A stretch of 64,000 nucleotides of DNA from assembly GCA_050261115.1 (NCBI GenBank), contig JBLNCY010000031.1, positions 1 through 64,000 on the forward strand. The letters run 5' to 3'. The translations under genes and the position numbers were made by a program. The notes below the pieces were generated by a model. That model was not told the origin of the DNA, did no database searches, and worked only from the letters and a program-made list of their open reading frames with translations. This stretch comes from Methanocella sp. Its GTDB lineage: Archaea; Thermoproteota; Bathyarchaeia; Bathyarchaeales; Bathycorpusculaceae. This document shows, piece after piece, positions 1 to 19,620 of the stretch (within the stretch, counting starts at the first letter, position 1; each line of letters opens with the position of its first letter).

Positions 1-1521
1 GCTGATCGCAAGGCCCTTAATCGAGTTGTCGAGGGGTTTTAGGACAGCTGCATCGTTGGGGCCTGCGTAGTCGCCTTGGAGAGGTTTTAGGAGGGTGTTA
101 CCTTTGACTTCGTGGTCGTAGGTGCGGATGACTGCTTCTTTGCTTGCGATGTTGGGCGCCGCCAATAGCTCCATAAGCGTCAACGTCAAGTGCTCAGGTT
201 CAGGAAACGCTGGCTCTGTTAATTGGACTGTTTCGGTTGTGGCTATCTTTGTGGTTTCGCAGGGGCTGAAAAGAAAATCCATGTCTATGTCTGAGACGAC
301 TTCTCCTTTGTAACTTAGCCTTAGTCGACGTTCTGGTATGAGTTGGCCGATAACGGTGGCGCGAACGTCTTCTTTTTCAAAGATTGCCAAAACTTTCTCT
401 AGATTCTCGGGGGGTACCGTCATGAGCATGCGTTCTTGAGATTCGGAGAGGTAAATCTCCCAAGGCGCAAGTCCCTCGTGCTTGAGCGGAACCTTATCGA
501 GGTCGACTGTTACCCCGCAGTTGAAGCGCTCCGCGGTTTCGCCCACTGCAGAGGATAGACCGCCTCCGCCGATATCAGTTATGCCGCTTCCTAGGCCTTC
601 GTCACGGATTTGAATAACCGCCCGCTTGACTTTTTCCTCCTCGATGGGGTCAGCGATTTGAACAGCTGGGCGACTGATTTCCTCAGATTTCTCCGTTAAC
701 TCGGCAGATGCAAATGTGACGCCGTGAATGCCATCTCGGCCGGTTTTGCCGCCTGAAAGAACAACATAGTCACCGACTTTGCCCCTACGAACATACTTGT
801 TGAGCGGGAGTAGCCCGATACAACCACAGTACACGACAACGTTACCTGTGTAGCTGTCATCAAAGTATATGGCGCCGTTTACGGTTGGGATACCCATGTT
901 GTTTCCATAGGCGCTAATGCCTGCGGTGACGCCCCGATAGATGTATTTGGGATGTTTAACGCCTGCAGGCAGCTTGCTGTAATCATAATCTAGCGGTCCA
1001 AAACCCAATACGTCGGTGCATGCAATGGGATCTGCCCAGACACCAAGAATATCTCGAATGACGCCGCCAACACCGGTTGCTGCTCCACCAAAAGGTTCGA
1101 CCGCAGAGGGGTGATTGTGAGTTTCTACCTTAGCGGCTACGCCGTAGCCTTTGTCGAATTTAACGATGCCAGCGTTATCCTCAAAGACACTAAAGCACCA
1201 GGGGGCATTGATTTCTTTAGTGGCTTTAGCAAGGTAGGTTTTGAATAGGCTGTTGATGGTTTTGCCGTTGTATTCTATTTTGCCCTTGAAGGTTTTGTGG
1301 CAACAGTGCTCGCTCCAGGTTTGACTGATGGTTTGAAGCTCAACATCAGTCGGGTTGCGCTTCTGGTTTCTGAAGTAGGCTTGAATGCCGGCTAATTCCT
1401 CTGCGCTAAAGCCCAGTGCCATCTCACTGTTGATTTCAGATAGCTGAGCCATGGTTGCTTTTGCCATTAGAATTTCTATTACTTGGCTTGTTTTGCGTTG
1501 CTTGATTAGATTAGCGTTCAT
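1..1521 (-). CDS. purL: Phosphoribosylformylglycinamidine synthase subunit PurL (3' end outside window)
   Basis: Not in the ORF track because it runs off the edge. Manual translation from the ATG at 1521 (ATGA overlap with the purS stop) gives MNANLIKQ...QTWSEHCCHKTFK...KVETHNHPSAVEPFGGAATGVGGVIRDILG, which are canonical PurL motifs. Confidence 0.96.
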   Translation of the reverse strand, partial: MNANLIKQRKTSQVIEILMAKATMAQLSEINSEMALGFSAEELAGIQAYFRNQKRNPTDVELQTISQTWSEHCCHKTFKGKIEYNGKTINSLFKTYLAKATKEINAPWCFSVFEDNAGIVKFDKGYGVAAKVETHNHPSAVEPFGGAATGVGGVIRDILGVWADPIACTDVLGFGPLDYDYSKLPAGVKHPKYIYRGVTAGISAYGNNMGIPTVNGAIYFDDSYTGNVVVYCGCIGLLPLNKYVRRGKVGDYVVLSGGKTGRDGIHGVTFASAELTEKSEEISRPAVQIADPIEEEKVKRAVIQIRDEGLGSGITDIGGGGLSSAVGETAERFNCGVTVDLDKVPLKHEGLAPWEIYLSESQERMLMTVPPENLEKVLAIFEKEDVRATVIGQLIPERRLRLSYKGEVVSDIDMDFLFSPCETTKIATTETVQLTEPAFPEPEHLTLTLMELLAAPNIASKEAVIRTYDHEVKGNTLLKPLQGDYAGPNDAAVLKPLDNSIKGLAIS

Positions 1522-1769
1522 TTTAGTTCAACAATACTGATTGTGTAGTTGTCTTTTGTGGGGTTTGCAAGTAGGCGTTTACTCATTTCCTGAGCCTTGG
1601 ATTCCGCCTCTTCGATGGATGCAGCTTCTAGGAATACGGTGTAGACTTTGCTGACTTCAACAGCTGCAACATTAAAACCCAATTCTACAAGTGATCGTGC
1701 GGTGGTTTCGCCTTCCGGATTACTGTGGCCGGGTTTGAGGCTTATTTCGATTTTAGCGGCGTATTTCAT
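1518..1769 (-). CDS. purS: Phosphoribosylformylglycinamidine synthase subunit PurS
   Basis: 83 aa with LKPG..NPEG and LLANP motifs; directly upstream of purL. Confidence 0.95.
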   Translation of the reverse strand: MKYAAKIEISLKPGHSNPEGETTARSLVELGFNVAAVEVSKVYTVFLEAASIEEAESKAQEMSKRLLANPTKDNYTISIVELK

Positions 1770-2973: not shown

Positions 2974-3882
2974 CTATAGAGGTAGCTCGTTTGCGGTGGG
3001 CAGTCCGTCGCGTGCACCCATCTTCATAACGCATCTGGAACCAACAAAGTTACCTAATCTGCCACATTCTTCTAAGGGGCGGTTTTGGATTAAGCTGTAA
3101 AGGAAACCTGCATCGAAAGCGTCACCAGCTCCAGTGGTGTCAACTACGTTAACTTTGTAGGGCGGGATTGTTTTTTTCTCTTCGCCGTTGGTAACGTAGC
3201 AGCCTTTATCACCCATTTTGACCGCGACGATTTTAACGCCCATATCGATTAGTTTTTGGGCACCTTTAGGTATGCTTGTTTCGCCAGTTAAGAGCTCGAG
3301 CTCTATTGCGTTTGGCATCATAACAAACGAATTCTGAACTATAGGCTCGATCGCGGAAAGCCCCTTCTGTGCGTACAGGGAGCCAGGGTCAAAACTAATT
3401 TTAACTGAATCAGGCAAGAAACTCATTAACTTCTTCTGTGCCCGAAAAGACTTCTCTCCTACAAACGATGACAAATGCAGAAACTGAGTATCAGTTATGT
3501 AGGGTGCGCTAAGTTCTCTGAATTCAATGCTATCGTTGACGCCGGGGCTAATGTAGAGTGCACGCTGACCTTTCTTGTCAACAAAACCCAGGCAGACTCC
3601 GCTTTTGCCCTTGGCTGAATGGATGATGCCGTCTGTGTTGACACCTTCTTTTTTGAAGCATTCAATTTGGAGTTGACCTTCATGGTCGTCTGCGATTTTG
3701 CCGACAAACCCCACTTTGCAGCCCAACCGCGCTAAACCGACCGTAGTGTTGGCTGCTGAGCCACCGCAGGCTTCAGCGATTTCACGCACAAAACTCTCTT
3801 CCTCGGCGCTTGCTATCTTGTCGACCTTTAGCAATGTGTCGACGTTGAGTGCTCCAAAGCCTATTACGTCAAATTTGGTCAT
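2974..3882 (-). CDS. PfkB/ribokinase-family kinase (EhaT-like); candidate nucleoside kinase inside the pur operon
   Basis: GGSAANT and DTTGAGDAF PfkB signatures; ATGA overlap with the upstream Ftr-like gene. Confidence 0.9.
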   Translation of the reverse strand: MTKFDVIGFGALNVDTLLKVDKIASAEEESFVREIAEACGGSAANTTVGLARLGCKVGFVGKIADDHEGQLQIECFKKEGVNTDGIIHSAKGKSGVCLGFVDKKGQRALYISPGVNDSIEFRELSAPYITDTQFLHLSSFVGEKSFRAQKKLMSFLPDSVKISFDPGSLYAQKGLSAIEPIVQNSFVMMPNAIELELLTGETSIPKGAQKLIDMGVKIVAVKMGDKGCYVTNGEEKKTIPPYKVNVVDTTGAGDAFDAGFLYSLIQNRPLEECGRLGNFVGSRCVMKMGARDGLPTANELPL

Positions 3883-4790
3883 TGGAATATCTCGCTGAAG
3901 GGGATTTTGTATTGGCCAAGTTTGCCTTCATAATTGCCGGCTGAGATGCGAACCACGCCTTCGATATCTTGAGTTGCTTCGATGCCTGCCTTAGTAGCTG
4001 CTTTAATAGCATCGACTGAGACGGCATCGTAAACTACTTCGGCTATGTATCCTACGCCGTTGGGAACTTTGGATTCCTTGCCGAGTTTGGCTTTGAGGCT
4101 GGGGCAGTAGTAGTGGTTGGTTGTGGGGCCGATTTGTGGATAGTGTGTTTCAGGTTTAGAGCCCGCTGAGCATATGTCAAAGGTGGTTACGACGCCATCT
4201 ATGTGATGAATTGCGTCAAGGGCTGCTTTGCCGGCTTGTTTCATGGCTTCTTTGGTTGTGCACATAAGCCAAAAGTTGCCGCCCGCAACACCCCTAGCAT
4301 AGCCGATATAGCGCTCTATTACAAAGTCAGGAACCATCAAAGGCACCACGATGACTTCGCGGCCATAGCGGTTCTCCACCCATTCATAGCCGTCGCCGCA
4401 GTGACCGACACGCTCCATCATGTCCATTTTGCCCTCAGCGTTAGGAAGAGCATCATAGACTGCGGTGAAAGGTTTGACGAGGATGTCTTGGCGGATGCGG
4501 TAACTGAGTTCCTTCTCAAACTTTGCGAGGCAATCCTCGAAACTCTTTTTGGGGTTGAGTTCGCCCCAGAATTGCAATATCGCGCCGACTCTGTGGTCGG
4601 GGGTTTGGTCTTCGTTCAGGTAGCGTTCGACGCCGCCTTCGGTTCGTCCGATGACAACTGAGGGGGTGGCGGTTGAATCTGACGCTGCCTTGCAGAGGGT
4701 TTCTATGTCATCTGCAGTTACGATAACCCGGCAGTACAAGCCGGCGAATCCTTCTATGAAAGTATCCATATCGATTTTTTTGTTCACCAT
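3879..4790 (-). CDS. Formylmethanofuran:H4MPT formyltransferase-like paralog (Ftr-II/EhaS type)
   Basis: Ftr fold motifs DTF.E.F, TPD.R.G, GDGY, GVAGGNF, TNH.YCP, ISAGNYEGKLG. Divergent motifs RIRQDILVKPFT, HCGDG and ICSAGSKPET replace canonical RIGQCV, FFGDG and GGIV.S.SKVG. Confidence 0.88.
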   Translation of the reverse strand: MVNKKIDMDTFIEGFAGLYCRVIVTADDIETLCKAASDSTATPSVVIGRTEGGVERYLNEDQTPDHRVGAILQFWGELNPKKSFEDCLAKFEKELSYRIRQDILVKPFTAVYDALPNAEGKMDMMERVGHCGDGYEWVENRYGREVIVVPLMVPDFVIERYIGYARGVAGGNFWLMCTTKEAMKQAGKAALDAIHHIDGVVTTFDICSAGSKPETHYPQIGPTTNHYYCPSLKAKLGKESKVPNGVGYIAEVVYDAVSVDAIKAATKAGIEATQDIEGVVRISAGNYEGKLGQYKIPFSEIFQ

Positions 4791-4793
4791 TCT

Positions 4794-5885
4794 TTATCCT
4801 AGTCTCCCTATTGCTACTCCTCTAACATTTCTGCGGAACTCACAGCTCTCCCGTACGAGGGCTTCAACGTTTCGCAGGGTAACTATTTCGACTCTTGGAA
4901 GCGCCCCCGGATAGAGTGCATAGAGCTGTCGTAGCAGTGAGGTGTTTACTCCGCTTTGCTCTACTGCAGACTTTACCCAGTATGAGAGCACTTTTAATGT
5001 TTGTTCTTTGCCTAGCCCGCAGAAGCGGTCTGCAATCACTGCGGTCACTAGGTTGCCATCTGCCATAACGGCTACGTCTGCGTTGCGTACAGCATAGCTG
5101 TTGCCATTAAATGAGACGGCTAGGCCGCCGTATTTGCGGACAAGCTTGAAGGCTTCCACATCGGTTATGCTGTCGCCGATGTACATAACATCAGCAATCC
5201 TTACGCCTAGACGGCTTGTGGCGTCTTGGATGGCTTGGGCTTTCTGTTCGCCGCCTATAGTTTTTACTTCGCAGATTAGTTTACCGGCGGTCATTTGGGG
5301 GATTTCTTGCCAAAATATTTGGTCTAACCGCTGGATTATGGCTTGGTCTGACGCTGAGAAGTCAGATAGAGACTTTGCGTCGGGGGGTATTTGGATAAGG
5401 GGCATCTGGGAAATTTCCTGTGCCACCATCTTTAGGCTCTGCTTTTCTTTGTCTGTTATGCTGTAGTTGTCAAGGGTGACTTTTGTGCAGTAAGTGTGGT
5501 CGAAGGGAAAGTCTATGGCTTTGCAGAGCGCTTTGATGTAGTGCTCATAACTGGTGCTTACGATGAAGACTTCACCATAACTCTGTAGGTGAGCCATTAA
5601 TTCGGCGGTTTGGGGTATCAAGAGGATGTTTTTAGCTGAAAACTCCTCCATCAGATTATCGGAAATGTCATATGCCTTGAAGAAGGGTAAAATCAATTTT
5701 AGTGTGCTGCCAGCTTGGTAGCCGGATTTACGGATAACATCAGCCAGTACGTCATCGTATTTGCTTATGTTGCAAAAGAGTTTGTCGCCGTTTGGGATGA
5801 AGGCGGTGCAGAGCTCATAGGCATTGTCGTTTTTTGTTATTGGGCCTTCACAGTCCGTAAATATAAGTCGTTTTATGGGTTGCAC
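4794..5885 (-). CDS. HAD-superfamily predicted phosphatase (EhaR/COG4030-like)
   Basis: Motif I FTDCEGP, motif II VSTSY, motif IV YIGDSITD. Start moved to the GTG at 5885, overlapping the purD end; the track start at 5954 lies deep inside purD. Confidence 0.85.
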   Translation of the reverse strand: MQPIKRLIFTDCEGPITKNDNAYELCTAFIPNGDKLFCNISKYDDVLADVIRKSGYQAGSTLKLILPFFKAYDISDNLMEEFSAKNILLIPQTAELMAHLQSYGEVFIVSTSYEHYIKALCKAIDFPFDHTYCTKVTLDNYSITDKEKQSLKMVAQEISQMPLIQIPPDAKSLSDFSASDQAIIQRLDQIFWQEIPQMTAGKLICEVKTIGGEQKAQAIQDATSRLGVRIADVMYIGDSITDVEAFKLVRKYGGLAVSFNGNSYAVRNADVAVMADGNLVTAVIADRFCGLGKEQTLKVLSYWVKSAVEQSGVNTSLLRQLYALYPGALPRVEIVTLRNVEALVRESCEFRRNVRGVAIGRLG

Positions 5886-7297
5886 CGTAGTTTCTCCATG
5901 TGGCCGATGCTTTTGTTTATGTGCTGTTGGGAGGCGATGTCGGTGCGGTTCCACAGTCCGCCGCCTGTGATGGCTTGGGCGCCTTCTTGGCTGATGAGTC
6001 GTGCTTCCTCGATGCTGTCGCCGATGCCTAGCACACCGATGGCACGGGATTTGAGCGCATAATTTTTGCCGTCGCGGACCTCCATGCTGCCGGGGTAGAT
6101 TCGGATTTTGTCGCCAAACTTTTTCGTTAGTGCTTCGGCTTTGGATAAGTCAACTGCGCCGCCAACTTGGGTTTTGTCGACTCTGTCGGCGTAGACTTGG
6201 CTGTATCCCCCATAGTCGGCTGGAACCTTGTAGGTTAATACAGTGGCGGATTGCTCCATTTCGACGCTTTTGAGGTTGCCGTCTATCATGCCTAGGCATA
6301 TGTCGGTGAAGTCGTCTTTGATTACTGGGAGTAGGTTCATAATTTCGGGGTCGCCGGGGCGACTGTTGATTTCCAGAATCTTTATGCCTTTACCCGTGTG
6401 CATAAACGCCAGGTATAGGGGGACGCCGCGGAGTGCGGTGTCGTCTGGGATTTGTTTTTTCCAGCCGTTGAAAACCCTCTCGGCTAGGGCAAGTTCTGCT
6501 GCGCGGTCGGCGGCTGTTAGGAAGGGTAAGTAATCTTTGGCGTCCTTGTAGGAACCCATGCCGCCCGTGTTTGGGCCCTGGTCGCCGTCGAATGCGCGTT
6601 TATAGTCGCGTGTGTCGGGTAAGGGAATGAAGTGTTTGCCGTCGCAGAAGCCCATGCAGCTGGATTCTTCGCCGGGCACCTTTTCTTCGATTATCACTGA
6701 GCCATATCTAAAGCTGGAGAGGAAATGCTCCCAGAGCTGTTCTCGGGTGGTGAAGTGGTCGCCCCATACGCCGACGCCTTTTCCTAAAGCGGGTTTATCG
6801 GGTTTTACTGCGACTTGGTTGTCTAGTTCGTCTAGCCATCTGTAGAGGGCTGCTTTTGCTTCTGTTTCGGATGGGAATTCCGCTGGGTTGAAGACTTTGA
6901 AGCGCGGGTTAGCCTCGGGGGCTATTTGCTCAAAGAGAAGACGTTGAGCTACTTTGCTTTCCTCGATGGCGTAAGCCTTTTTTGGGCAGACAACTGGGAT
7001 ACCGACTTTAGATTCGATTAAGTCCCGGATGCCTTTGATAATGGGGTTCTCGGAGCCTACTAAAACAAAGTCCAAGTTTGCTTTGTTGGTTTCTGCGAAG
7101 TGGCAGATTTCGTTCACGTCTAAGCTGGGGATGACGGCGTGTTTTGTGGCGTGTTTGGCGTTGTAGGGGTTGCGTTGCTTGTCGGCGATGTAGAGTTGCA
7201 CTTGATAGTTTTGGCTGCGTAGAAGTGTATCTGCCATAGCGACTTCTCTTGCGCCATAAGAAACCAGTAGGACACCTAGTTTATCCATCCAATTCAC
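5873..7297 (-). CDS. purD: Phosphoribosylamine--glycine ligase
   Basis: GARE, E.SK, KPD....GKGV, DYKRAFDGDQGPNTGGMGSY, EINSRPGDPE; start may be the ATG at 7288. Confidence 0.95.
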   Translation of the reverse strand: MNWMDKLGVLLVSYGAREVAMADTLLRSQNYQVQLYIADKQRNPYNAKHATKHAVIPSLDVNEICHFAETNKANLDFVLVGSENPIIKGIRDLIESKVGIPVVCPKKAYAIEESKVAQRLLFEQIAPEANPRFKVFNPAEFPSETEAKAALYRWLDELDNQVAVKPDKPALGKGVGVWGDHFTTREQLWEHFLSSFRYGSVIIEEKVPGEESSCMGFCDGKHFIPLPDTRDYKRAFDGDQGPNTGGMGSYKDAKDYLPFLTAADRAAELALAERVFNGWKKQIPDDTALRGVPLYLAFMHTGKGIKILEINSRPGDPEIMNLLPVIKDDFTDICLGMIDGNLKSVEMEQSATVLTYKVPADYGGYSQVYADRVDKTQVGGAVDLSKAEALTKKFGDKIRIYPGSMEVRDGKNYALKSRAIGVLGIGDSIEEARLISQEGAQAITGGGLWNRTDIASQQHINKSIGHMEKLRCNP

Positions 7298-7338
7298 CGT
7301 ATGTATGCTTAGTGTTTGACGTATTCAGTTAATAGCAA

Positions 7339-8820
7339 TTACGGCTGAATTTCTTCGTTCTCGTAGATTCGGCCCTTTTCCTCATAGCCTTCTTCGAAGC
7401 GTTTTTTCATGGCGTCAGCGATTTTCTGAGCGCAGGGCGTGGGGTACTTGCCGGTTACGCAGGCTAGGCAGAGTTCGTCTTTTGTTTTGCCTGTGGCTTC
7501 TATGAGTGCCTCTATTGATTGGTAGCATACACCGTCGGCGCCGATGATTTGAGCGATTTCCTCGGGTGTGTGGCGTGCACCGACGAGTTGCCCGTAGCTG
7601 GACATGTCGATGCCATAGAAGCATGGGCCGATGATTCGGGGGAACGTGACAAAAACGTAGACTTTTTTGGCGCCGGCTTGCCGCATCTTTTCGATGATAA
7701 CTTTGGTTGTGTCGCCCCGAACGATGCTGTCCTCGGTTATGATGACGCTTTTGCCTTTGATTTTATTGCCTAAGATGTTGATTTTTTTGTCGATGGTTGT
7801 GAATCGTTCTGCGTTTAGCAAAATGAAGGCGCGTTCGGTAACATAGCGGTGGCGTCTTGAGCAGCGTTCCCAGCGTAATCCCGACGCCTCATGCACGCCC
7901 ATGGCGGAGTCGTCGCCTGTTTCAGGGACAGACATGATGATGTCGCATTGATTAACTACATCTGGGTATTCTTTGACGGTGTTTCTGCCGAATTGTTCTC
8001 GGATTTCATAGACGTATTTGCCGTTGAAAATCGAGTCGGGCCTAGCGAAGTAGGCGAATTCAAAGGCGCAGAAAGCTTGTTTGGGGTTTTGGATGACTTG
8101 GATGCGTTTGAATCCGTCTTTTGTGGCGATTGCGAGTTCGCCAGGGTTTAGTTCGAAGTCGCGGACAAAACTGTTCATGTCTAAGCTGACGGTCTCAGAT
8201 GAAAATGCATAGGTTTTGGTGTTGGGGTCATGTCCTGCGCAGAGGGGTTTTATTCCATGCGGGTCTTTGAAAGCAAAAAAGTCGCCGTCTCCGGTTATGC
8301 CGGTTACGCTAAAAGCACCGTCTAGGCTTTCCATGACGGCTTTTGCAGCGGCCACGATGTCCTTGTTTTTTTTGTATGCAAGCAGGAACTTGTGGCAGAC
8401 TAGGTCACTGTCACAGTTGTAAATAAAATTGGCAAAGTTTTGCTGCATCTCTTTTTTGAGGGAAACCGTGTTTACGATGTTGCCGTTGAATGATAGGGCA
8501 ACTTTTACGCCGTCGGCGGATGCAGTGAAGGGTTGAGTGCCTTCGACTATGGAGCGGTCGTCGCATTTACCTGAGGTGGTGTAGCGTACGTTGCCGATGC
8601 CGACATGGCCAGGTAGGCGGTTATCCCAGTCGTTTATCGCGGTACCTTTGACTTTGGGAACAAGGTCTAGGTTTTTGTATGCGTAGAATTCACCGTTGCT
8701 GTAGGTGAGGAAGCCATGTGATTGGTGACCTCGGTGGTTTTGAGCTCTTAGTCCCCAGTAAACATAGGGGAAGACTGGTTGATTATCGTAATTTATTGCT
8801 CCAAATATGCCGCAGCCCGT
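7339..8820 (-). CDS. purF: Amidophosphoribosyltransferase, Fe-S type; apparent ACG start
   Basis: The frame extends 124 codons upstream of the track start to (ACG)GCGIFG...QNHRGHQSHG...GNVRYTTSG...QPF...NGNIVN. PRPP site EDSIVRGDT; four Cys (CAFE, CFYG, CLAC) typical of 4Fe-4S PurF. Confidence 0.95.
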   Translation of the reverse strand, partial: TGCGIFGAINYDNQPVFPYVYWGLRAQNHRGHQSHGFLTYSNGEFYAYKNLDLVPKVKGTAINDWDNRLPGHVGIGNVRYTTSGKCDDRSIVEGTQPFTASADGVKVALSFNGNIVNTVSLKKEMQQNFANFIYNCDSDLVCHKFLLAYKKNKDIVAAAKAVMESLDGAFSVTGITGDGDFFAFKDPHGIKPLCAGHDPNTKTYAFSSETVSLDMNSFVRDFELNPGELAIATKDGFKRIQVIQNPKQAFCAFEFAYFARPDSIFNGKYVYEIREQFGRNTVKEYPDVVNQCDIIMSVPETGDDSAMGVHEASGLRWERCSRRHRYVTERAFILLNAERFTTIDKKINILGNKIKGKSVIITEDSIVRGDTTKVIIEKMRQAGAKKVYVFVTFPRIIGPCFYGIDMSSYGQLVGARHTPEEIAQIIGADGVCYQSIEALIEATGKTKDELCLACVTGKYPTPCAQKIADAMKKRFEEGYEEKGRIYENEEIQP

Positions 8821-8974
8821 GTTTTAGTCCCTTCTAGCCTTGAATGACACAGTAGTGAAGGTTGGGGTTTATCAATTTTTAGTACAAATTTAGCTAAAAT
8901 CAATGATTTTTTTGACAGCAACCAGTTTTAACTTGACCAGAGTTGCGGTAGGTATTTTCTTGGTGCAGAAGGCG

Positions 8975-9146: not shown

Positions 9147-9974
9147 GTGCCTACCCCCATATACCACCTCTACATCGAATACGCTGAACCCCAAAAAGGC
9201 GGCTTCCGATTCAACATCTCGCAAGAAGAACTTCAACGCACCTTCGCAGAACCCTTCAACGAAGGCAATCACTTCTGGCACTTAGGCCGCCTACTTGACC
9301 CCATAAAAGTTAAAAAAATCGCCATATTCTGGTCCTACGAACAAGCCAACCTACTGGACTTGCCAAACAATGAACGGGTAGTGTCAGCCAAAGACAAAAA
9401 ATACGCCGTAGAATGCCTCGAGAAAAACAAGGTAAAAGGCGCATACGTCTGCACACACAAATTCATAACCAAACCCCACACCGTACAAGCGTCGTCGGCT
9501 GCGTCTGGGTCGGGTAAGCGTCGGGTTCTCATCGTAAGTGGCGCAGATAAAGAAATGCAGACCGCCCTGACCACAGCTCTAACCAAGCTCTTACTGGTTC
9601 CGGTGGTACTCCGTGAGGAACCGGGTAATGGAAGAAAAATTGTGGAACGCTTCACCGCCGATTACTCTGATATAGGGCTTGTTGTCGCGTTGCTTTCCCC
9701 TGACGATTATGCTTATCCCGCCTCTGTGCAGGCGTCAAAGCGGAAGCTTCAGCCCCGACGGGACGTGATGTTTGAACTCGGCTACCTCATTGGCAAAATG
9801 GGCAAAAGCAAGGTTCTTGCGTTTTATCGGGAAGCCCCCAACTTTGAGGCGGGCACCGACTTTGAGGGCATAAATGCCTGCCCCTTCGACGAAGAGGGCA
9901 CCTGGAAACATACACTGCTAAGTGAACTTACATGCAACGGCTATGTGGTTGAGCCAGACAGAATACTAAAATAA
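9147..9974 (+). CDS. Protein with a C-terminal TIR-like nucleotide-binding domain (CAP12/Pycsar-type TIR family)
   Basis: RVLIVSG.D, PVVL.E.P..G.KIVE.F, VALLSPDD, PRRDVMFELGY..G match the prokaryotic TIR-like domain with the putative catalytic Glu; N-terminal ~120 aa unrecognised. Confidence 0.75.
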   Translation: MPTPIYHLYIEYAEPQKGGFRFNISQEELQRTFAEPFNEGNHFWHLGRLLDPIKVKKIAIFWSYEQANLLDLPNNERVVSAKDKKYAVECLEKNKVKGAYVCTHKFITKPHTVQASSAASGSGKRRVLIVSGADKEMQTALTTALTKLLLVPVVLREEPGNGRKIVERFTADYSDIGLVVALLSPDDYAYPASVQASKRKLQPRRDVMFELGYLIGKMGKSKVLAFYREAPNFEAGTDFEGINACPFDEEGTWKHTLLSELTCNGYVVEPDRILK

Positions 9975-10302: not shown

Positions 10303-11595
10303 ATGAATAAACTATCGAAAACTACAAGCGTACTATTAATCGGCTTGTTAAGTTTCACCCTAATAGCCTCTTATGCAGCAGCGGCCTCAACGGGCGTATG
10401 GACCTTTGGCGGCGCAGCATACGAGGCGGTAATCAACAACATCGAAGCGCCTGATGGAGGCCACATAATTGTTGGCACCACCGAAGCCAGCAACAACAAC
10501 TATGATGCATGGATGTTCAAAGTAGACTCTGACGGCAATACCGTATGGAGCAGACCCTACGACGGCGGAAAAAACGAATCAGCATTTAACGTCATATCCA
10601 CAAGCGATGGCGGCTACGCAATAGTGGGCGCCACCACATCCTACGGAGCAGACGAAACAGGCAAAACTGACCTTTGGCTGATAAAAACCGACTCTGAAGG
10701 CAACATGCAATGGAACAAGACCTATGGCGTCAACTACTATGACGAAGGCTGGATGATACTTGAAGTTGACGACGGCTACATCATAGTAGGTATAACCTAT
10801 TCCGCTGAAGAGATAGGCGACGGCTGGCTACTAAAAACCGACAAGGAAGGCAACTTACTGTGGAATAAAATTTATGGCGGCAGCGGCGATGATGGCTTGT
10901 ATGGTGTAACTAAGACTGCAGCAGGCGGATACATTCTAGCGGGCTACACTAACTCGTCAGGTGCAGGCGGCTATGATGTTTGGCTAATCCGTGTCGATGA
11001 GATGGGTAATCAGCAGTGGGCACAGACCTATGGCGGTGTGGAAGATGACTTTGGGTACATTGCGTTTGAAAGTGAAACAGACTTTGTCGTTGACGGCACA
11101 ACATACTCCTATGGTGCGGGCGATGCAGACGTGTGGCTACTTAGAGTCGACGCGATGGGCAGCTTGATGTGGAACTATACTTATGGTGGACCAGACGGCG
11201 ACCATGGATGGTACGGCGCCAAAACCTCCGACGGCTATGCGTTATGCGGCTTCACCTACTCCTACAACACTGAAGACAGAGCGGAAGCGTGGCTTGTGAA
11301 AGTTGACGAACACGGCATGACACTCTGGAACAAAACCTATGGTGTAAGCGGCAAAGACTACTACGCCTGGGCAGTAATACAGACAAAAGAAGGCGGCTAT
11401 GCCCTTTCAGGCGAAGTCTCACCAATCGACAGCGAAGTAAGCGACGCATTCCTTATCGTCACAGACTCCGATGGCAATGCAGTAGTTGAGAATGCACCCT
11501 TAACTGGAAACCTCACAATCCATATAGTCGGCGCAGTCATCGCAGTCATTATTGTTATAGTCGTTGTTGTTTTGTTGATGAAACGAAAGAAGTAA
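10303..11595 (+). CDS. Secreted, C-terminally anchored beta-propeller repeat protein
   Basis: Signal peptide; about 7 repeats of D.W..K.D..G...W..TYGG; C-terminal TM helix followed by KRKK. Confidence 0.85.
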   Translation: MNKLSKTTSVLLIGLLSFTLIASYAAAASTGVWTFGGAAYEAVINNIEAPDGGHIIVGTTEASNNNYDAWMFKVDSDGNTVWSRPYDGGKNESAFNVISTSDGGYAIVGATTSYGADETGKTDLWLIKTDSEGNMQWNKTYGVNYYDEGWMILEVDDGYIIVGITYSAEEIGDGWLLKTDKEGNLLWNKIYGGSGDDGLYGVTKTAAGGYILAGYTNSSGAGGYDVWLIRVDEMGNQQWAQTYGGVEDDFGYIAFESETDFVVDGTTYSYGAGDADVWLLRVDAMGSLMWNYTYGGPDGDHGWYGAKTSDGYALCGFTYSYNTEDRAEAWLVKVDEHGMTLWNKTYGVSGKDYYAWAVIQTKEGGYALSGEVSPIDSEVSDAFLIVTDSDGNAVVENAPLTGNLTIHIVGAVIAVIIVIVVVVLLMKRKK

Positions 11596-12461: not shown

Positions 12462-13895
12462 TTATGGTTGCCATTTATCTATGATGTACTTGGGGATCTC
12501 GCTGCTGTCGCGTGGACCAACCAAGACTTTCCAGCCGGATAGTTCTTCGATTTCGCCGCTGATTCTGCTTGCTTTGCCTGGGCTGATGATTTTGCGGTGT
12601 TTAACTTTGCTCTCAACGCCTGAGGCTTTGATTGCGTCTGCGATGCGTTCGGCGGTTAGTTTGCGTCCTGCAACGCCGCTGTCAATTGCGCTACCTTCTG
12701 CGTCGACTACGATGAGGTATGCGTTGGTCTTGCTGCTTTCGATGTCGCTTGCGACTGTGTAGTAGGTTAGGGCGAAGTTGCTTGTGAACATGACTGGGCT
12801 GTTCTCGTCTGGTGTGCCGAAGACCTTGAGGCCGGGTGCGACTGCGACTGGTTTGCGTGGGTCAGTGTAGATGTTTTGGCGTAGGACTGCAAGTGGAAGT
12901 AGGCTCCATCCGTCGTTTCCGTGGAGTATTAGGGCGTCTGCATAGCGGACAACCAGCATGGATGCGAGGTATGATTCGCGCCATTTGATGAGGTCGTCTG
13001 CTGTTTCACCTTTGTTTGCCCAGACAGTCATGGGTATGCCGAGTAGCGGTAGGCCTGCGAGTTCGTCACCAGCTTTGGTGGCTGCGCGTCGAAGCATGGT
13101 AAAGTTGTTTAGGGTGTCTTGTAGTCCTTCATTGGCAAAGGTGCCGGGGTCAAGGACGATGTCTTTTACGCCGTAGGCTTGGAGGGTTTTTGTGAGTGAT
13201 GCTAATGTGTTAAGATCGTTTGGTGCAGATGCAACGAGGGGTGCATCATACATTATTGCGAGTTCAGCCATTTCTTTCCAGTTTTCTGTTGTTGCTGCGT
13301 AGAGTAGTGGGCGTGCTTTGGGTGCGGCCATGATGCCTGCTTCCATGACTTGGGGGTTTAGGGTGCACAGGATCATGGGTAGCTTGGTGGTTTCGCTGAC
13401 TTTTTTGACGCAGGCTTTGAATTTGTCTGCATCGTCGCTTGTGCATCGGATCGCAATCATGTCAAGTCGCAGAGTGTTTCCGATGTATTCGTAGCTAAAG
13501 TTTTCAGTCTTTTGTACGCGGGCGACAACTTCGCTCTCGGGCATTTCGTCGGTTACATCGATTGCGATTGCGGTTGGGTTCTTGTAAGTCAGTTCGTGGC
13601 GGTACATGACGAGTTTGCCGCCGATTTTCTTGGCTTTCTCGCCGACGCCGACGACTACTTCTTTCACTGCGGGTTTAAGGAGCTCTTGGAGGGTGGCGTA
13701 TGCTTTGGCGTGTTCTGGTTTTAGCAGTGGCTTGCATGCGTCGAGTTCCATTTCGCGGTTGACAAGCTTGGTGGCGAAGGCCATGCAGTTGTCGACGCCG
13801 CATTCTTTGCAGTTAATTTTCGGTAGGTTCTTGTAGATGGTGATTGGGCTGAGTTCTTTTAATCCGCCTTTTTTCTTTTCTGCCATATCAGTCAT
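12462..13895 (-). CDS. cdhE: ACDS gamma subunit (corrinoid Fe-S protein, large subunit)
   Basis: LPKINCKECGVDNCMAFA Fe-S motif; LRQNIYTDPRKP, NFALTY, VGPRDSS. Confidence 0.96.
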   Translation of the reverse strand: MTDMAEKKKGGLKELSPITIYKNLPKINCKECGVDNCMAFATKLVNREMELDACKPLLKPEHAKAYATLQELLKPAVKEVVVGVGEKAKKIGGKLVMYRHELTYKNPTAIAIDVTDEMPESEVVARVQKTENFSYEYIGNTLRLDMIAIRCTSDDADKFKACVKKVSETTKLPMILCTLNPQVMEAGIMAAPKARPLLYAATTENWKEMAELAIMYDAPLVASAPNDLNTLASLTKTLQAYGVKDIVLDPGTFANEGLQDTLNNFTMLRRAATKAGDELAGLPLLGIPMTVWANKGETADDLIKWRESYLASMLVVRYADALILHGNDGWSLLPLAVLRQNIYTDPRKPVAVAPGLKVFGTPDENSPVMFTSNFALTYYTVASDIESSKTNAYLIVVDAEGSAIDSGVAGRKLTAERIADAIKASGVESKVKHRKIISPGKASRISGEIEELSGWKVLVGPRDSSEIPKYIIDKWQP

Positions 13896-13901
13896 GACTC
13901 C

Positions 13902-15134
13902 TTAAGCCTTTACTTTGACCCATTCTAGGAACTTGGCTGGGTCTGCTTTCTTGTTTGCTGTTAAGTAGTTTGTGACGTCTTTGAGGGTCTTGACGGCTGC
14001 GGGATGCATCATCATGAATAGATCGACACCTGCGGTGAGTAGGGTGAGAGCTGTTGTAACTTCCCAAAGTGGACCTCTGAGTTCGCGTGGCTCCCAGTTA
14101 TCGGACATCTTTAGCCATGCTTCACGGGCTGCCCAAGCGTTTGTTGTACCGGAACTCATTGGCTGGGCTAATTCGAGGTCACCCATTAAGCCGCCGATGC
14201 GTGCGCGTTCCATGTTAGTGAAGGCGTAGTCTAAGCCGTAACCTAAGGCTGCGGTTGTTAAGTCCATGATGATGTCTTCGCGTCCAAGGTTGTCAAAGAG
14301 GTGTCTGTTTAGTTCGCGTGCAAAGTTTAGGTCCATTGGTGTGAAGGCTAGGACTGCGTTGCCGGATTTCTTGATGAATTTGCCGCATTTGTCAACATCC
14401 ATGTCGCGTGTGACTGAGCTGATAAGGAAGCGTTCACCTGGGAACTGTGCACAAACTTCTTCGAAGAGCGCGGTGTCTTTTACTGGGTCACCGCATCCGC
14501 CGATGACAAGTGGCACATCTACTGCTTGCAGGACCTTCTCGATGGTTTTGCATGCGTCTTTGGGTGTTGCATCCTTCAGTAGTGGGTCAACGCTGATGAG
14601 GTGTAGTGTAACCATGTCTGCGCCGAATTTTTCGACTGCAAGTTTTGCCCAAGCTGCTGGGTCGCCGACGACGTCTTTAACGTGCATCTTGACGGCTTTG
14701 CTTAGGGGGACTTCCATGTCGAAAACGTCTAAGGTGACGACTGGCTTGTGTGGTGTTGGGTTCTCAAAGCTGTAGAAAGCAGGGGAGAGTTCTCCGCCGA
14801 TGGTGATGGTTTTGCCGCGTGTGCCGCCTTCGCTTCGGGTTGCGCCTAGTTTGACTGTTGCGATTTGGTTGGGGTATTTCTCAATTGGTGAAACAAAAGA
14901 TGAGGGAAGGAGGCTTGTTGGTTTGCCGCCTGCCACTGCTGAGACGCCAGCTGGAAGCTTGAGCTTGGGCAAGATAGCTGGTGCCATGCCAGGCTCAAAG
15001 AGGATTTCTAGCTCTTTGGCGTCAAGTTGGAAATCCTCCAACTCGATCGTCTTGAACTTAGCTAGCGCGGCTAGCAAGTCATCGGAGAGCTGTAGGCCCT
15101 CGCTTTTGTTTTTGTCGTTGTTGTGGTGAGTCGT
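13902..15134 (-). CDS. cdhD: ACDS delta subunit (corrinoid Fe-S protein, small subunit); probable ACG start at 15134, alternative TTG at 15077
   Basis: LGAT..EGGTRG, ALGYGLDY...MERAR, NAWAAREAW, RGPLWE, MMMHP; position in the cdh operon. Confidence 0.95.
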   Translation of the reverse strand, partial: TTHHNNDKNKSEGLQLSDDLLAALAKFKTIELEDFQLDAKELEILFEPGMAPAILPKLKLPAGVSAVAGGKPTSLLPSSFVSPIEKYPNQIATVKLGATRSEGGTRGKTITIGGELSPAFYSFENPTPHKPVVTLDVFDMEVPLSKAVKMHVKDVVGDPAAWAKLAVEKFGADMVTLHLISVDPLLKDATPKDACKTIEKVLQAVDVPLVIGGCGDPVKDTALFEEVCAQFPGERFLISSVTRDMDVDKCGKFIKKSGNAVLAFTPMDLNFARELNRHLFDNLGREDIIMDLTTAALGYGLDYAFTNMERARIGGLMGDLELAQPMSSGTTNAWAAREAWLKMSDNWEPRELRGPLWEVTTALTLLTAGVDLFMMMHPAAVKTLKDVTNYLTANKKADPAKFLEWVKVKA

Positions 15135-15149
15135 TTTAGTTCACCAGGT

Positions 15150-16565
15150 TTAGGCTTTCTTGTCGTCTTTTGCGGTGGTGATGATGACTTTGTTGGCGTA
15201 GATCTTGGCGTCTTTGAGGATGATCTTGAATCCGCCGGCCATGATTGGCAGGGATCCTGCTGTGGCAACTGGCATCATGGTGCCTGCTGCTTCCTCGTTG
15301 ACTGTGACTGCTGTGGCTACTTCTTCTGCTGCGGGGGCTTCTTCTTTTGCCCATCTTGCAACAACTGGGTGGTTCTTTGCTTGCAGGAACGCTTTGAGTT
15401 CGTCAACGTTCTTGGCATCCTCTTCAGTGGCGATTTTGTCGACGACGTCTGCTGGGATGAAGTCTTTGACTTTTTCTTTGACTTCTTTAGGTACCCAAAC
15501 GATGCGGTTCCATCCGCCGTCTGCCGCAAAGAATTTGCTGCTTCGCATGTACTCGATGGACATGCCGTGGAAGCCGTCGATTTGTCTGCCGCCTGCCGCG
15601 GAGTCTGCTAAGGTGCTGAATGGTAAACCGTTTACGGTTGCACCCTTAAAGTTGCGTTGGACGACACCTAAGCCGTCAACTTCTGGGATGTAGAAGGTTA
15701 CTGCTTCAAAGCATCCACATGAGGTGTGTGGGTGATCAAAGGCTGTGTAGAGCCAAACTTTGTTGACTTCGCCCATGCTGCGTTTCTGTGCTGCTTCGTT
15801 AACGCCGCTGAATTCTCCTTTTTCTGCGTTAATTATTTCGCCTCTTGGGATTGCAAAGACTGGACCCTTGGGGTCAATGCTTGCGGAGGCTTTACCGTCA
15901 AACCAGCTGATGGCGCCGCAGTTGCTGTATCTTTGTGGTGTGATGACACAGACGTGGCTTGGCGCAAATGACTGACAAAGTGCGCAGCCATAGAATTCAT
16001 CAACTTCTGCGTCTTTTAGGCCTCTGGCTTTTGAGTCGCGTGCTTCATAAGCTTGGATAGCTTGAGGTGTCATTTCGTCTAGTTTTGCTGGGTCGGTTAT
16101 GAAGGTAACCTGTAGTTTCTCAACAATTGGCAGTTCGCTCTTGAAGAGTCTGAAGAGAACTTTACCAATTTGTTCAAAGCTGTTTAGGCCTTTCTGGAAG
16201 GATTTCTTGCCGATGCGTATCCAGATGTCATAGCGCTGGTTTAGGTGCATGAAGCCCTCGATGTAGTTGAGGTAGCCGTGAATGCGTCTTTCTAGGACAC
16301 CTTCAAGGCCTGAGTCGAGTTTTGCGCCTGCTGCTTCGATTAGGATACCGAATGGATATGCGCCGCCTTCCTTTAGGTCTTTTAGATCTGGGCCGATGAT
16401 GGTGACTTTGCCATCTTCGACTTCGTTCATGGGTTTTACTTTTGCCAGTTCAAACTTTTGTTTGACTGTTGGTCCGCCGAGTTCGACTTGCATGTCGTTT
16501 CTGCGGATACGTTCGCCTTCGTAGATTACGCCAACTTCTACAGGTATATCTTTAAACATTGACAT
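15150..16565 (-). CDS. cdhC: ACDS beta subunit (acetyl-CoA synthase)
   Basis: YEGERIR, LERRIH, HLNQR, FYGCALCQSFAP, HTSCGCFE A-cluster ligands; start set at the ATG at 16565 after GGAGG. Confidence 0.97.
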   Translation of the reverse strand: MSMFKDIPVEVGVIYEGERIRRNDMQVELGGPTVKQKFELAKVKPMNEVEDGKVTIIGPDLKDLKEGGAYPFGILIEAAGAKLDSGLEGVLERRIHGYLNYIEGFMHLNQRYDIWIRIGKKSFQKGLNSFEQIGKVLFRLFKSELPIVEKLQVTFITDPAKLDEMTPQAIQAYEARDSKARGLKDAEVDEFYGCALCQSFAPSHVCVITPQRYSNCGAISWFDGKASASIDPKGPVFAIPRGEIINAEKGEFSGVNEAAQKRSMGEVNKVWLYTAFDHPHTSCGCFEAVTFYIPEVDGLGVVQRNFKGATVNGLPFSTLADSAAGGRQIDGFHGMSIEYMRSSKFFAADGGWNRIVWVPKEVKEKVKDFIPADVVDKIATEEDAKNVDELKAFLQAKNHPVVARWAKEEAPAAEEVATAVTVNEEAAGTMMPVATAGSLPIMAGGFKIILKDAKIYANKVIITTAKDDKKA

Positions 16566-16569
16566 TTTC

Positions 16570-17115
16570 TTATTGTCCTCCTTCAACAAATTTTTGGGTC
16601 ATTACTTTTAGATTTGCAGCCCAATCTTCTAGGCTTGCATTGGGAAAAGACCAAGATGCGTGTACATGGTACATGTTGTCGATGGTCATTGTTTTTAGGT
16701 CTGGTGCAAAGTGTTTAAGACCGCTAAGGATTAGTGCCTCCATGTAGTAGGGCATGCCAACATAGATTACGAGGTCTGGGCGGCCTTTGCCGTCTAGTCC
16801 CATCCATGTTGGGTCAGCGACGCGTTGACTGATTTCCATTGCGTTCATGTAGCCTGCTGGTGTGTAGCCGCGTTTGACGAATTCACCGACCATGTGAGCT
16901 GTTGCAACCACTGGAATCTTGGATGCCTTTGCTAAGTCGATGACGTACTCGATTGCCTGTTTGCCTTCCATCCATCTTTCGGTTACGTTACTGCCGACAA
17001 TGAGAAGGGGCCGTTGGGCCTTCTTCATCATTGCGACTGCTATCTCGGGTTTTTGAATTGGGTTTGCTTTTTTGGTTGCTGCAATTTCTGCACATTGCCA
17101 TGGTTCACAGGACAT
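16570..17115 (-). CDS. cdhB: ACDS epsilon subunit
   Basis: KAQRPLLIVG, PVVATA, W.GLDG.G..DL, LSGLKHF; between cdhA and cdhC. Confidence 0.93.
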   Translation of the reverse strand: MSCEPWQCAEIAATKKANPIQKPEIAVAMMKKAQRPLLIVGSNVTERWMEGKQAIEYVIDLAKASKIPVVATAHMVGEFVKRGYTPAGYMNAMEISQRVADPTWMGLDGKGRPDLVIYVGMPYYMEALILSGLKHFAPDLKTMTIDNMYHVHASWSFPNASLEDWAANLKVMTQKFVEGGQ

Positions 17116-17135
17116 AGTTTTTTCTCCTCCGTTCC

Positions 17136-19484: not shown

Positions 19485-19620
19485 ATCTAATAACCTCTGT
19501 AAAGGTTTACCAGTTAACCAGATTACAATCTTTTTAAACCTTTCCAGAATCTTTATTCAAAAGTCAGGTGCGAGTGATAGAAATGTTAAAAGAAGAAAAT
19601 TTTGTGTAAAAATTTTTGGG

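Follow-up and report, generated by a model that had tools for sequence, protein, structure and literature searches.

Gene content of the purine operon

The first 8.8 kb of the 64,000-nt stretch of contig JBLNCY010000031.1 (assembly GCA_050261115.1) analysed here, which is called the window below, is a single minus-strand string of eight genes. Five of them are purine biosynthesis genes, and the other three, encoding a HAD-like phosphatase, a paralog of the formyltransferase Ftr and a PfkB-family kinase, stand directly after purF and purD (steps 1 and 2), in the place of the enzyme that formylates glycinamide ribonucleotide (GAR) at step 3. An initial annotation, made from the letters alone, had proposed that this triad replaces the GAR formyltransferases PurN and PurT and uses a formyl group carried by tetrahydromethanopterin (H4MPT) or methanofuran (MFR). 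The results presented below suggest that the Ftr paralog, hereafter Ftr2, is probably the step-3 GAR formyltransferase in some form, and the interpretation given in the initial annotation was supported by every computational check that could be run. The eight genes, in minus-strand order, are as follows.

7339..8823 (frame; the open reading frame (ORF) starting with ATG is 7339-8448, 369 amino acids (aa)), minus strand: purF, amidophosphoribosyltransferase, step 1; TIGR01134, 244 bits on the ATG ORF
5873..7297, minus strand: purD, GAR synthetase of a divergent type, step 2; GARS_A, GARS_N and GARS_C; TIGR00877, 234.5 bits (cut-off 288)
4794..5885, minus strand: HAD-like phosphatase of the EhaR/AF1437 family, 363 aa, GTG start; weak HAD, Hydrolase_3 and HAD-IB matches
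3879..4790, minus strand: Ftr2, divergent Ftr paralog, 303 aa; PF01913, 135.3 bits, and PF02741, 176.7 bits
2974..3882, minus strand: PfkB-family kinase, EhaT-like, 302 aa; PF00294, 187.3 bits
1828..2910, minus strand: purM, aminoimidazole ribonucleotide synthetase, step 5; TIGR00878, 264 bits (above the cut-off of 236)
1518..1769, minus strand: purS, subunit of formylglycinamidine ribonucleotide (FGAM) synthase, step 4; TIGR00302, 69 bits (above the cut-off of 39)
1..1521, minus strand: purL, FGAM synthase subunit, step 4, N-terminal 507 aa, running off the window; TIGR01736, 471 bits, profile positions 11-436

All eight genes were named by Pfam and NCBIfam, in the order purF, purD, HAD-like, Ftr2, PfkB, purM, purS and purL that the initial annotation had given. 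Its description of the junctions, a 13-nt overlap, a 3-nt gap and an ATGA overlap, proved exact to the base when read from the DNA: the HAD-like gene starts with a GTG at 5885 and overlaps the last 13 nt of purD, which ends in a TAA at 5873-5875; the TAA of the HAD-like gene is followed by 3 nt and then the ATG of Ftr2; and the stop of Ftr2 and the start of PfkB share an ATGA. No purN or purT was found within the window's purine operon. The acetyl-CoA decarbonylase/synthase (ACDS) genes (CdhD/E, CdhC and CdhA), said to be about 7 kb away, were located at 12462-19484, 6.6 kb from the triad.

Step 3 and the formyl carriers in the same genome

Profile searches of the whole genome assembly (2.15 Mb in 66 contigs, 94.85% complete) gave no match for PurN (TIGR00639) or PurH and nothing for Formyl_trans_N (PF00551) even at E<=1, and those for PurT (TIGR01142) returned weak ATP-grasp matches only, the best with 44.8 bits against a cut-off of 502. 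PurP gave two adjacent matches of 229 and 157 bits on contig C51, and the second formylation of the pathway is covered by a formate- and ATP-dependent enzyme because PurP is present. The searches thus returned PurP without PurN, PurT and PurH, which is in favour of the interpretation in the initial annotation; absence is unprovable from an incomplete genome, and the same pattern repeats across the Bathyarchaeia.

A second, canonical Ftr (Ftr1) is encoded on contig C57 (PF01913, 181 bits vs 137 bits for the window copy), and FwdA (809 bits) and Mch (384 bits) were found in the same genome. Since FwdA, Mch and Ftr1 are all present, the methanofuran/H4MPT branch is complete without the window copy, and both formyl-MFR and formyl-H4MPT are available.

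Ftr2 is a distinct clade of the Ftr family

Both Ftr lobes are full length in the window Ftr2 (PF01913 profile positions 9-142 of 142, PF02741 positions 1-148 of 149). The protein scored 319.8 bits on the broad subfamily model NF002554, over the cut-off of 297, and 219.3 bits on the FhcD/Ftr equivalog model TIGR03119, under the cut-off of 292.6. When 151 Bathyarchaeia genomes of at least 85% completeness, including that of the window, were searched with it, 128 gave matches, which fell into two types with none intermediate: an Ftr2 type in 60 genomes, with 48-85% identity and at least 260 bits, and an Ftr1 type with at most 41% identity and at most 180 bits. Identity between the window Ftr2 and Ftr1 was 34-41%. 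At least two Ftr-family matches were present in 55 of the 60 Ftr2 genomes, and 68 of the 151 genomes had the Ftr1 type only. The closest relatives of the window protein are named Bathyarchaeia or Candidatus Bathycorpusculum.

In a tree of 88 sequences (a quick search with support from the SH-like approximate likelihood ratio test only, and with no PDB sequences included), an Ftr2 group of 40 rows contained the window protein (support 84), an Ftr1 group of 40 rows contained the other copy of the genome (support 99), and the branch joining these two groups against the remaining rows had a support of 96. The canonical Ftr that the initial annotation had asked for is therefore present on C57, and the window copy belongs to a distinct Ftr2 clade. 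By source names, the members of the Ftr2 group besides Bathyarchaeia are Njordarchaeota, Atabeyarchaeum, Promethearchaeota, Borrarchaeum, Altiarchaeota, Methanoliparum, Methanolliviera and others.

Residue E251 of Ftr2 aligns with the Glu of the 'YEIVI' stretch in the Ftr of Archaeoglobus fulgidus (1M5H). It is invariant in 11 and in 34 Ftr2 sequences and conserved in both the Ftr1 and the Ftr2 groups, and we take it to be the equivalent of Glu245 of Methanopyrus kandleri Ftr. According to the passages of Hemmann 2019 on the mechanism, Ftr transfer runs via a tetrahedral intermediate held by a protonated Glu, and the oxyanion-stabilising Glu of the family is Glu252 in FhcD. Approximately 20 positions, including the arginines R49 and R100, are conserved only in Ftr2.

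None of Ftr2, the HAD-like protein and PfkB matched Formyl_trans_N or the ATP-grasp fold of PurT in Pfam and NCBIfam searches, and the relation of Ftr2 to PurN/PurT is proposed to be that of a protein that works like them, not one of family membership. A complex prediction with two Ftr2 copies and the HAD-like protein gave a score of 0.00, which, obtained without controls, speaks neither for nor against binding.

A contig scan for Ftr2 returned 80 loci, all from Bathyarchaeia except one contig under a bacterial name. This contig (L071; DATIXS010000302.1, 3.4 kb), filed as a metagenome-assembled genome of Candidatus Acidoferrum, carries an Ftr2 that is 73% identical to that of the window; the bacterial label is probably a binning error.

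The phosphatase and kinase of the triad

The motifs of the HAD-like protein, D11-x-E13-G-P, S-T-S-Y, K215 and G237-D-S-I-T-D242, are invariant in 29 sequences; the residue at +2 from the nucleophile Asp is Glu, not Asp, and the C-terminal tail is conserved. On the HAD-IB model TIGR01488 the protein scored 34 bits, under the cut-off of 45. Its AlphaFold model (pLDDT 93.7) has the HAD fold with a cap, and the first Foldseek match was PDB 1Y8A (A. fulgidus AF1437; E=5e-36, TM 0.79/0.91). The nearest structures after 1Y8A were SerB, ThrH and MtnX, which are type-IB phosphatases and a phosphotransferase. An atlas cluster near the HAD-like protein is automatically named 'Energy-converting hydrogenase A subunit R EhaR', which is a lead only. 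Relatives of the HAD-like family in bacteria (Thermodesulfobacteriota) are also hinted at by the atlas.

The PfkB domain is full length (PF00294 profile positions 4-301 of 302). With 175 bits it lies far under the cut-off (299.65) of the ribokinase equivalog TIGR02152, and the PDB ribokinases, its nearest solved matches, reach only E=1e-30 to 1e-21. The nearest PfkB atlas clusters are from Methanobacteriota.

Ftr2 and PurN/PurT are nearly mutually exclusive in Bathyarchaeia

PurD was found in 133 of the 151 genomes, of which 57 had Ftr2 only, 61 a PurN-like enzyme only and 10 a PurT-like enzyme only, and in four (G039, G048, G089 and G147, in which a contig end truncates the cluster) no formyltransferase was found. 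The predicted anticorrelation of Ftr2 with PurN/PurT was thus observed, the two being almost mutually exclusive in the sample. PurN matches occurred in 64 of the 151 genomes, 22 of them over the cut-off, and PurT matches (E<=1e-40) in 11, none over the cut-off. An apparent case of Ftr2 together with PurT in one of these 11 (G001) was rejected, the match being really PurK (458 bits). PurD was also absent in 14 of the 18 genomes without any formyltransferase, as expected of organisms that do not make purines or of assembly gaps.

Changes of state within a family weigh more than raw counts. In family f11, Ftr2 occurs in G011 and G033, PurN in G053 and a PurT-like enzyme in six genomes, and never together; in family f22, three genomes carry Ftr2 and a fourth (G027) carries a PurN-like replacement.

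Matches to the HAD-like protein came from 65 of the 151 genomes, namely all 60 Ftr2 genomes, the four replacement genomes described below and G147 (as a fragment at a contig end). It occurred in none of the Bathyarchaeia genomes with only an ordinary PurN or PurT and in 0 of 256 Thermoproteota outside Bathyarchaeia. PfkB orthologs of at least 45% identity occur in 53 of the Ftr2 genomes and in no others. Among the other seven Ftr2 genomes, three (G001, G007 and G013) carry a more divergent PfkB adjoining Ftr2, one (G046) has a PfkB ortholog shortened at a contig end, and in three (G055, G056 and G094) Ftr2 lies at a contig end and PfkB was not found.

PurD scores are bimodal across the class, with 300-505 bits over the cut-off and 222-281 bits under it. 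In most cases the low-scoring PurD accompanies the HAD/Ftr2/PfkB cassette. Family f11 is divided along this line, with low-scoring PurD in its cassette genomes and high-scoring PurD in the rest, a pattern suggestive of transfer of the purF-purD-HAD-Ftr2-PfkB block as a whole. A functional tie between the divergent PurD and the triad was considered and rejected, since canonical-type PurD is paired with Ftr2 in G025, L130 and L145-L147 and divergent PurD occurs without HAD in f15, G029 and G058. The divergence of PurD looks lineage-bound.

Natural replacement of Ftr2 by a PurN-like enzyme

Four genomes (G032, G027, G010 and G002) have the HAD-like gene and PfkB without Ftr2 and carry a divergent PurN-like gene instead. 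G032 carries, in this order, purF, purD, a Formyl_trans_N protein of 281 aa, HAD, PfkB and FolD, with a PurH-type formyltransferase domain for aminoimidazole carboxamide ribonucleotide (AICAR) on the opposite strand. G027 has the same core, purF-purD-[PurN-like]-HAD-PfkB, and the corresponding genes of G010 and G002 are scattered along one contig or across two. The replacement enzymes (L108, 6359-7204, minus strand; L109, 8341-9333, minus strand; L126; L112) are 278-330 aa long and score 51-75 bits on the PurN model, and the catalytic motifs N-x-H-P and D-x-G-P are intact in all four. A loop that reads S-G-x-G-[ST]-[ND] in five canonical PurN proteins and in seven further PurN-like ones from the class reads S-[ST]-G-R-D-x-x-A in each of the four replacement enzymes, and the Asp and Ala in the latter would fit a substrate lacking the 5'-phosphate. 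The formyltransferase was thus swapped for a folate-type one with the phosphatase and kinase retained. No other single observation hints so strongly that the place of action of HAD and PfkB is the substrate side of formyl transfer, whatever the carrier.

A second PurN-like type (L118-L124), of ca. 270-315 aa, with an 'HPADL' motif, a long C-terminal part and ca. 80-106 bits, is the only PurN-like gene in most f18 genomes. In G085 and G109 (L122 and L123) this type and a canonical PurN form a tandem pair that immediately follows purD.

Linkage to purine genes within and beyond Bathyarchaeia

Conservation of the pur neighbourhood, which the initial annotation had put forward as a check, holds in Bathyarchaeia and recurs in other layouts in distant Ftr2 lineages. 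In 20 Bathyarchaeia loci from different genera and families, purD-HAD-Ftr2 was contiguous in 18 and HAD-Ftr2-PfkB in 17, with purF usually upstream and purM-purS-purL nearby. The contiguity of purD-HAD-Ftr2 in 18 of 20 loci indicates that the arrangement is not due to chance. In the genome G081 (L016), purD and purL each match in two pieces, 6815-8376 and 12994-14654, possibly owing to frameshifts or assembly errors.

A metagenome scan with a distant-Ftr2 profile returned 19 loci, six Bathyarchaeia-like and 13 distant (41-48% identity to the window Ftr2). A pur gene was present within the stretch at nine of the 13 distant loci, in several layouts: purD-HAD-Ftr2-PfkB at L132, L134 and L135; HAD-Ftr2 running towards a convergent purD that has purF beside it, at L145, L147 and, in part, L137; an Ftr2 with its 5' end cut off beside purD and purF at L146; purF-purD-Ftr2 at L130; and Ftr2 beside purL at L140. 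HAD was directly upstream of Ftr2 in eight of the 13. No pur neighbour of Ftr2 was found at two longer loci, L129 and L136. Linkage to pur genes that outlasts rearrangement is the classical sign of a shared pathway. No hydrogenase genes were found near the triad in the 20 and 19 loci, for which the eight window proteins served as probes and 10 neighbours were scanned with Pfam.

Presence of the triad in RNA libraries

Contigs at least 99% identical to the window were found in metatranscriptomes of anaerobic digesters and bioreactor sludge. The triad is covered in four runs from three studies, with each of its junctions, PfkB/Ftr2, Ftr2/HAD and HAD/purD, bridged by single contigs.

Metatranscriptome contigs of three runs from two studies (X1, X2 and X6) end within four bases of one another at 8827-8830, just upstream of the purF frame, and no loose ends are listed there, which hints, though weakly, at a transcript end that would leave hardly any leader.

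Other features of the window

The catalytic Cys motif GCGIFG of purF is present, and no ATG, GTG or TTG codon precedes it in frame. At 8812-8830 (minus strand) the purF frame reads TAA-AAC-ACG-GGC-TGC (stop, N, T, G, C), whereas relatives begin M-G-C-G-I-F-G, the Met being encoded in one of them (L009) by an ATG at the position of the window's ACG. Contigs of RNA libraries from three runs span this region with no difference listed. Translation may start at the ACG, the start codon may be dead, or the ACG may be a variant of the strain.

The ACDS genes and a CooC-like ATPase (12462-20385, minus strand) adjoin the purine cluster. In G032, ORFs beside purF (L108, 10187-13465) resemble, by translation only, a CooC-type ATPase and ACDS subunits, and the adjacency of pur and ACDS genes may therefore recur in another family. 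Upstream of the purine operon, 9147-9974 (plus strand) encodes a 275-aa protein with a TIR domain of the CAP12/Pycsar-effector type (PF10137, 72 bits), possibly a defence gene. The 430-aa ORF at 10303-11595 (plus strand) matched no Pfam family at E<=1e-5; it has a hydrophobic N-terminus, many short repeats rich in Gly, Tyr, Asp and Trp and a hydrophobic C-terminal stretch.

The gap and its candidate in the literature

The initial annotation had stated that some H4MPT-using archaea lack recognisable PurN/PurT, and this agrees with the relevant passages of two papers. In Brown 2011 (PMC3261824), no purN or purT was found in two Archaeoglobi, four Methanobacteria (printed there as 'Methanomicrobiales') and M. 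kandleri, and GAR formylation has been a hole in the purine pathway of these seven Euryarchaeota since then. The same passages state that Methanothermobacter thermautotrophicus synthesises its own purines, that the Methanobacteriales have a single PurP-like protein and are still without PurN/PurT, that purP duplicates are widespread and unexplained and are not tied to the step-3 gap, that PurB is common to H4MPT synthesis and the purine pathway, and that formyl-H4MPT is held to be a poor donor. They also record that C8 labelling is inconsistent, the label coming from acetate C2 in M. stadtmanae and not in M. smithii. In Chadwick 2022 (PMC9012536), ANME-1 is described as being without a GAR formyltransferase, the step being left to 'an as yet unidentified enzyme', and, in the passages on Ftr, 'Ftr2' paralogs are listed for ANME-1, ANME-2a/2b, Archaeoglobales, M. 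kandleri and M. marburgensis, with no assigned function and with transcription below that of Ftr1, only Ftr1 versions having been characterised. The two papers thus hold both halves apart, the lineages without PurN/PurT and the carriers of Ftr2, and these passages do not join them. Full-text literature searches, with subscription journals and supplements outside their scope, found no paper joining Ftr2 to GAR formylation.

The initial annotation also linked the triad to ehaR/S/T of Methanothermobacter, and the text of Kaster 2011 backs this link by giving EhaS and EhaT as formyltransferase and ribokinase homologs; it states that they are co-transcribed with ehaA-R, and also that PurP uses formate. 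The name 'EhaR' for the HAD-like protein comes from the automatic cluster name.

Proposed mechanism

In its 'reverse' direction Ftr passes the formyl group of N5-formyl-H4MPT to the primary aminomethyl group of methanofuran. A reaction scheme can be proposed in which Ftr2 would keep the Ftr fold and the catalytic Glu and run this reaction on another amine, the glycinamide H2N-CH2- group, and in which the donor would be N5-formyl-H4MPT or, less likely, formyl-methanofuran. Since the glycinamide of GAR presents the same H2N-CH2- nucleophile as methanofuran, the simplest change would be to keep the donor site and acquire a new pocket for the acceptor. The HAD phosphatase would convert GAR to glycinamide riboside, Ftr2 would convert this to formylglycinamide riboside, and PfkB would use ATP to give formylglycinamide ribonucleotide (FGAR), to be used by PurL/PurS. 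By a rough reckoning of the energetics, the net cost would be one ATP, as for PurT, and the kinase step would make the low-potential formyl transfer irreversible.

Which molecule accepts the formyl group (GAR or the riboside), which one donates it (formyl-H4MPT or formyl-MFR) and that the proteins are enzymatically active at all is what we infer. That HAD, Ftr2 and PfkB form one module which replaces PurN/PurT at step 3 in H4MPT-using archaea, the detour through the riboside included, is put forward tentatively and at rather less than even odds. The detour is favoured because the phosphatase and kinase strictly accompany Ftr2, stand in order around it and are joined to it by coupled junctions, and because both are retained where Ftr2 has been replaced, by an enzyme whose phosphate loop has changed.

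Several points weigh against the detour or against the module as a whole. We know of no precedent for a purine pathway in which a phosphate must be removed and then put back. The argument from the replacement enzymes presumes that the canonical PurN loop S-G-x-G-[ST]-N binds the 5'-phosphate of GAR, as we take it to do in E. coli PurN. At L130, a neighbour of Njordarchaeota in the tree, the order is purF-purD-Ftr2 with no HAD in 5.7 kb, and PfkB is directly downstream of Ftr2 in only three of the 13 distant loci. The exclusion of PurN/PurT by Ftr2 is not absolute, because ANME-2a/2b are listed with Ftr2 plus PurN in the passages of Chadwick 2022 (PMC9012536) and because G115, the sole double case among the 133 PurD-positive genomes, carries Ftr2 and a sub-cut-off PurN-like fragment (contamination ca. 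4%). The genomes are related, so that a two-by-two table overstates independence and no P value is given, and clear switches are few (f11, f22 and f8). The whole-genome counts cover Thermoproteota, the distribution across phyla being taken from passages of Brown 2011 and Chadwick 2022. The contig cover in metatranscriptomes means presence in RNA libraries only, since DNA is a possible source and a contig is not one transcript. Lastly, what the proposed activity builds on is gene content, junctions, co-occurrence, mutual exclusion with PurN/PurT, conserved synteny, intact catalytic motifs and presence in RNA libraries.

Alternative explanations

The triad may be explained without a riboside if Ftr2 formylates phosphorylated GAR directly with formyl-H4MPT or formyl-MFR and HAD and PfkB are a repair or salvage pair, which could, for example, destroy a mis-formylated or broken ribosyl intermediate and re-phosphorylate the freed ribose or riboside. 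All the profile and synteny evidence on Ftr2 applies equally to this explanation. The Ftr2-specific R49 and R100 could bind a phosphate, which would speak against a riboside as the substrate, and Ftr2 stands without an adjacent HAD or PfkB gene at L130, L129, L136 and L140. The best named match of PfkB is also ribokinase, both among profiles (175 bits) and among PDB structures, but the protein is far under the ribokinase cut-off. A repair pair, moreover, is not expected to co-occur so strictly as was observed for HAD (65 of 151 genomes, never with an ordinary PurN or PurT alone), nor to be kept when a PurN-type enzyme with a changed phosphate-loop motif replaces Ftr2, and the order HAD, Ftr2, PfkB with coupled junctions resembles consecutive steps. 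Direct formylation of GAR with a separate repair pair is the main rival and is, for these reasons, regarded as unlikely.

The remaining explanations take Ftr2 out of step 3, and each fails to account for either the exclusion pattern or the gap. It is quite improbable that Ftr2 resembles FhcD in releasing formate from formyl-H4MPT for PurP and a hypothetical formate-dependent GAR ligase. FhcD, an Ftr homolog, does feed a formyl-MFR hydrolase in the account given in Hemmann 2019, and the genome depends on the formate-using PurP, but step 3 would then be left without an enzyme, Ftr2 excludes PurN/PurT and not PurH or PurP, no hydrolase partner lies in the cluster, Ftr1 already interconverts both formyl carriers, and HAD and PfkB would be idle. 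The triad could also make or repair the ribose part of H4MPT or methanofuran, or consist of true Eha accessory subunits, its purine context being incidental; the co-transcription of EhaS and EhaT with ehaA-R (passages of Kaster 2011) and the sharing of PurB by H4MPT and purine synthesis (passages of PMC3261824) would agree with this. Against it, 68 of the 151 genomes have the Ftr1 type and no Ftr2, with the HAD-like gene present there just in the four replacement genomes, from which it follows that H4MPT/MFR metabolism does not need the triad; the link to purD and purF recurs, and the probe and neighbour scans of the 20 and 19 loci gave no hydrogenase genes near the triad. We consider this explanation very improbable. 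The same low standing is given to the idea that another enzyme, such as a second formate-using, PurP-like ATP-grasp protein, performs step 3 and the triad acts on a purine side product. Two adjacent PurP-family matches do lie on C51, and the purP duplicates in the passages of PMC3261824 are widespread and unexplained; according to the same passages, however, the Methanobacteriales have a single PurP-like protein yet lack PurN/PurT, and the duplicate is not tied to the gap, and the exclusion pattern of Ftr2 would go unexplained.

Implications

The triad is the best candidate so far for the enzyme missing from several archaeal groups since 2011, and this 15-year-old gap in archaeal purine synthesis is reduced to a question about three soluble proteins. 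De novo purine synthesis in many H4MPT-using archaea may, although we hold this with some doubt, include an obligatory nucleoside-level detour, which would be a third, non-homologous and ATP-coupled way of formylating GAR and would re-assign EhaR/S/T. With the same reserve, the detour might extend, by the published distribution, to Archaeoglobi, Methanobacteriales, Methanopyrus and ANME-1 and, by sequence relatives, to Asgard groups, Altiarchaeota and Methanoliparia.

If the proposal is true, a third class of GAR formyltransferase would tie C8 of the purine ring directly to the methanopterin branch of the Wood-Ljungdahl pathway, and if the detour holds, HAD and PfkB would be the first kinase/phosphatase pair driving an intermediate step of the purine pathway. 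The widespread annotations 'formylmethanofuran--H4MPT formyltransferase', 'ribokinase' and 'EhaR/S/T' would be corrected, and metabolic models of Bathyarchaeia, ANME-1, Asgard archaea and methanogens would be improved. Reduced ferredoxin from Eha replenishes the formyl-MFR that is drawn off for biosynthesis; EhaR/S/T would move from 'hydrogenase subunits' to purine enzymes, which would explain their riding on Eha. The C8 labelling of M. stadtmanae and that of M. smithii, as recorded in passages of PMC3261824, could both fit an H4MPT-bound donor.

Comparison with known systems

Ftr2 shares with Ftr1 (PDB 1FTR, 2FHJ, 1M5H and 1M5S) the two-lobe fold and the conserved Glu, and it is expected to move a formyl group onto or off a primary aminomethyl group. 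It differs in belonging to a separate clade, in being encoded in purine operons and not with genes of the one-carbon pathway, in its proposed acceptor, a glycinamide moiety instead of methanofuran, and in co-existing with Ftr1 in most carriers. The Ftr-family protein FhcD of the methylotroph formyltransferase/hydrolase complex (PDB 6S6Y; match to Ftr2 at E=2e-21) likewise acts outside methanogenesis, but it works on methylofuran in an Fwd-like complex, and no FhcA/B/C-like genes stand beside Ftr2.

PfkB-family kinases are known to phosphorylate the 5'-OH of purine-pathway ribosides, as do the aminoimidazole riboside kinase of Salmonella and adenosine kinase acting on AICA riboside. These enzymes act in salvage, whereas the kinase of the triad would perform an obligatory de novo step. 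AF1437 (PDB 1Y8A), the closest solved relative of the HAD-like protein, is a structural-genomics protein without an assigned function, from an organism, A. fulgidus, that is without PurN/PurT according to passages of PMC3261824. EhaR, EhaS and EhaT at the end of the Methanothermobacter eha operon, judged by the text of Kaster 2011 and by automatic atlas names and taxa, appear to belong to the same three families and, by their letters, to stand in the same order; they go with a hydrogenase operon and carry the annotation of hydrogenase subunits, whereas the triad of the window lies inside a purine operon.

PurN and PurT have no homology to the triad, whose donor would be a formyl group bound to H4MPT or MFR and in which HAD and PfkB accompany the formyltransferase. 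What the triad would have in common with them is the proposed net conversion of GAR to FGAR, the same place in the operon and a pattern of occurrence in which each excludes the other, and the ATP cost of the detour would equal that of PurT.

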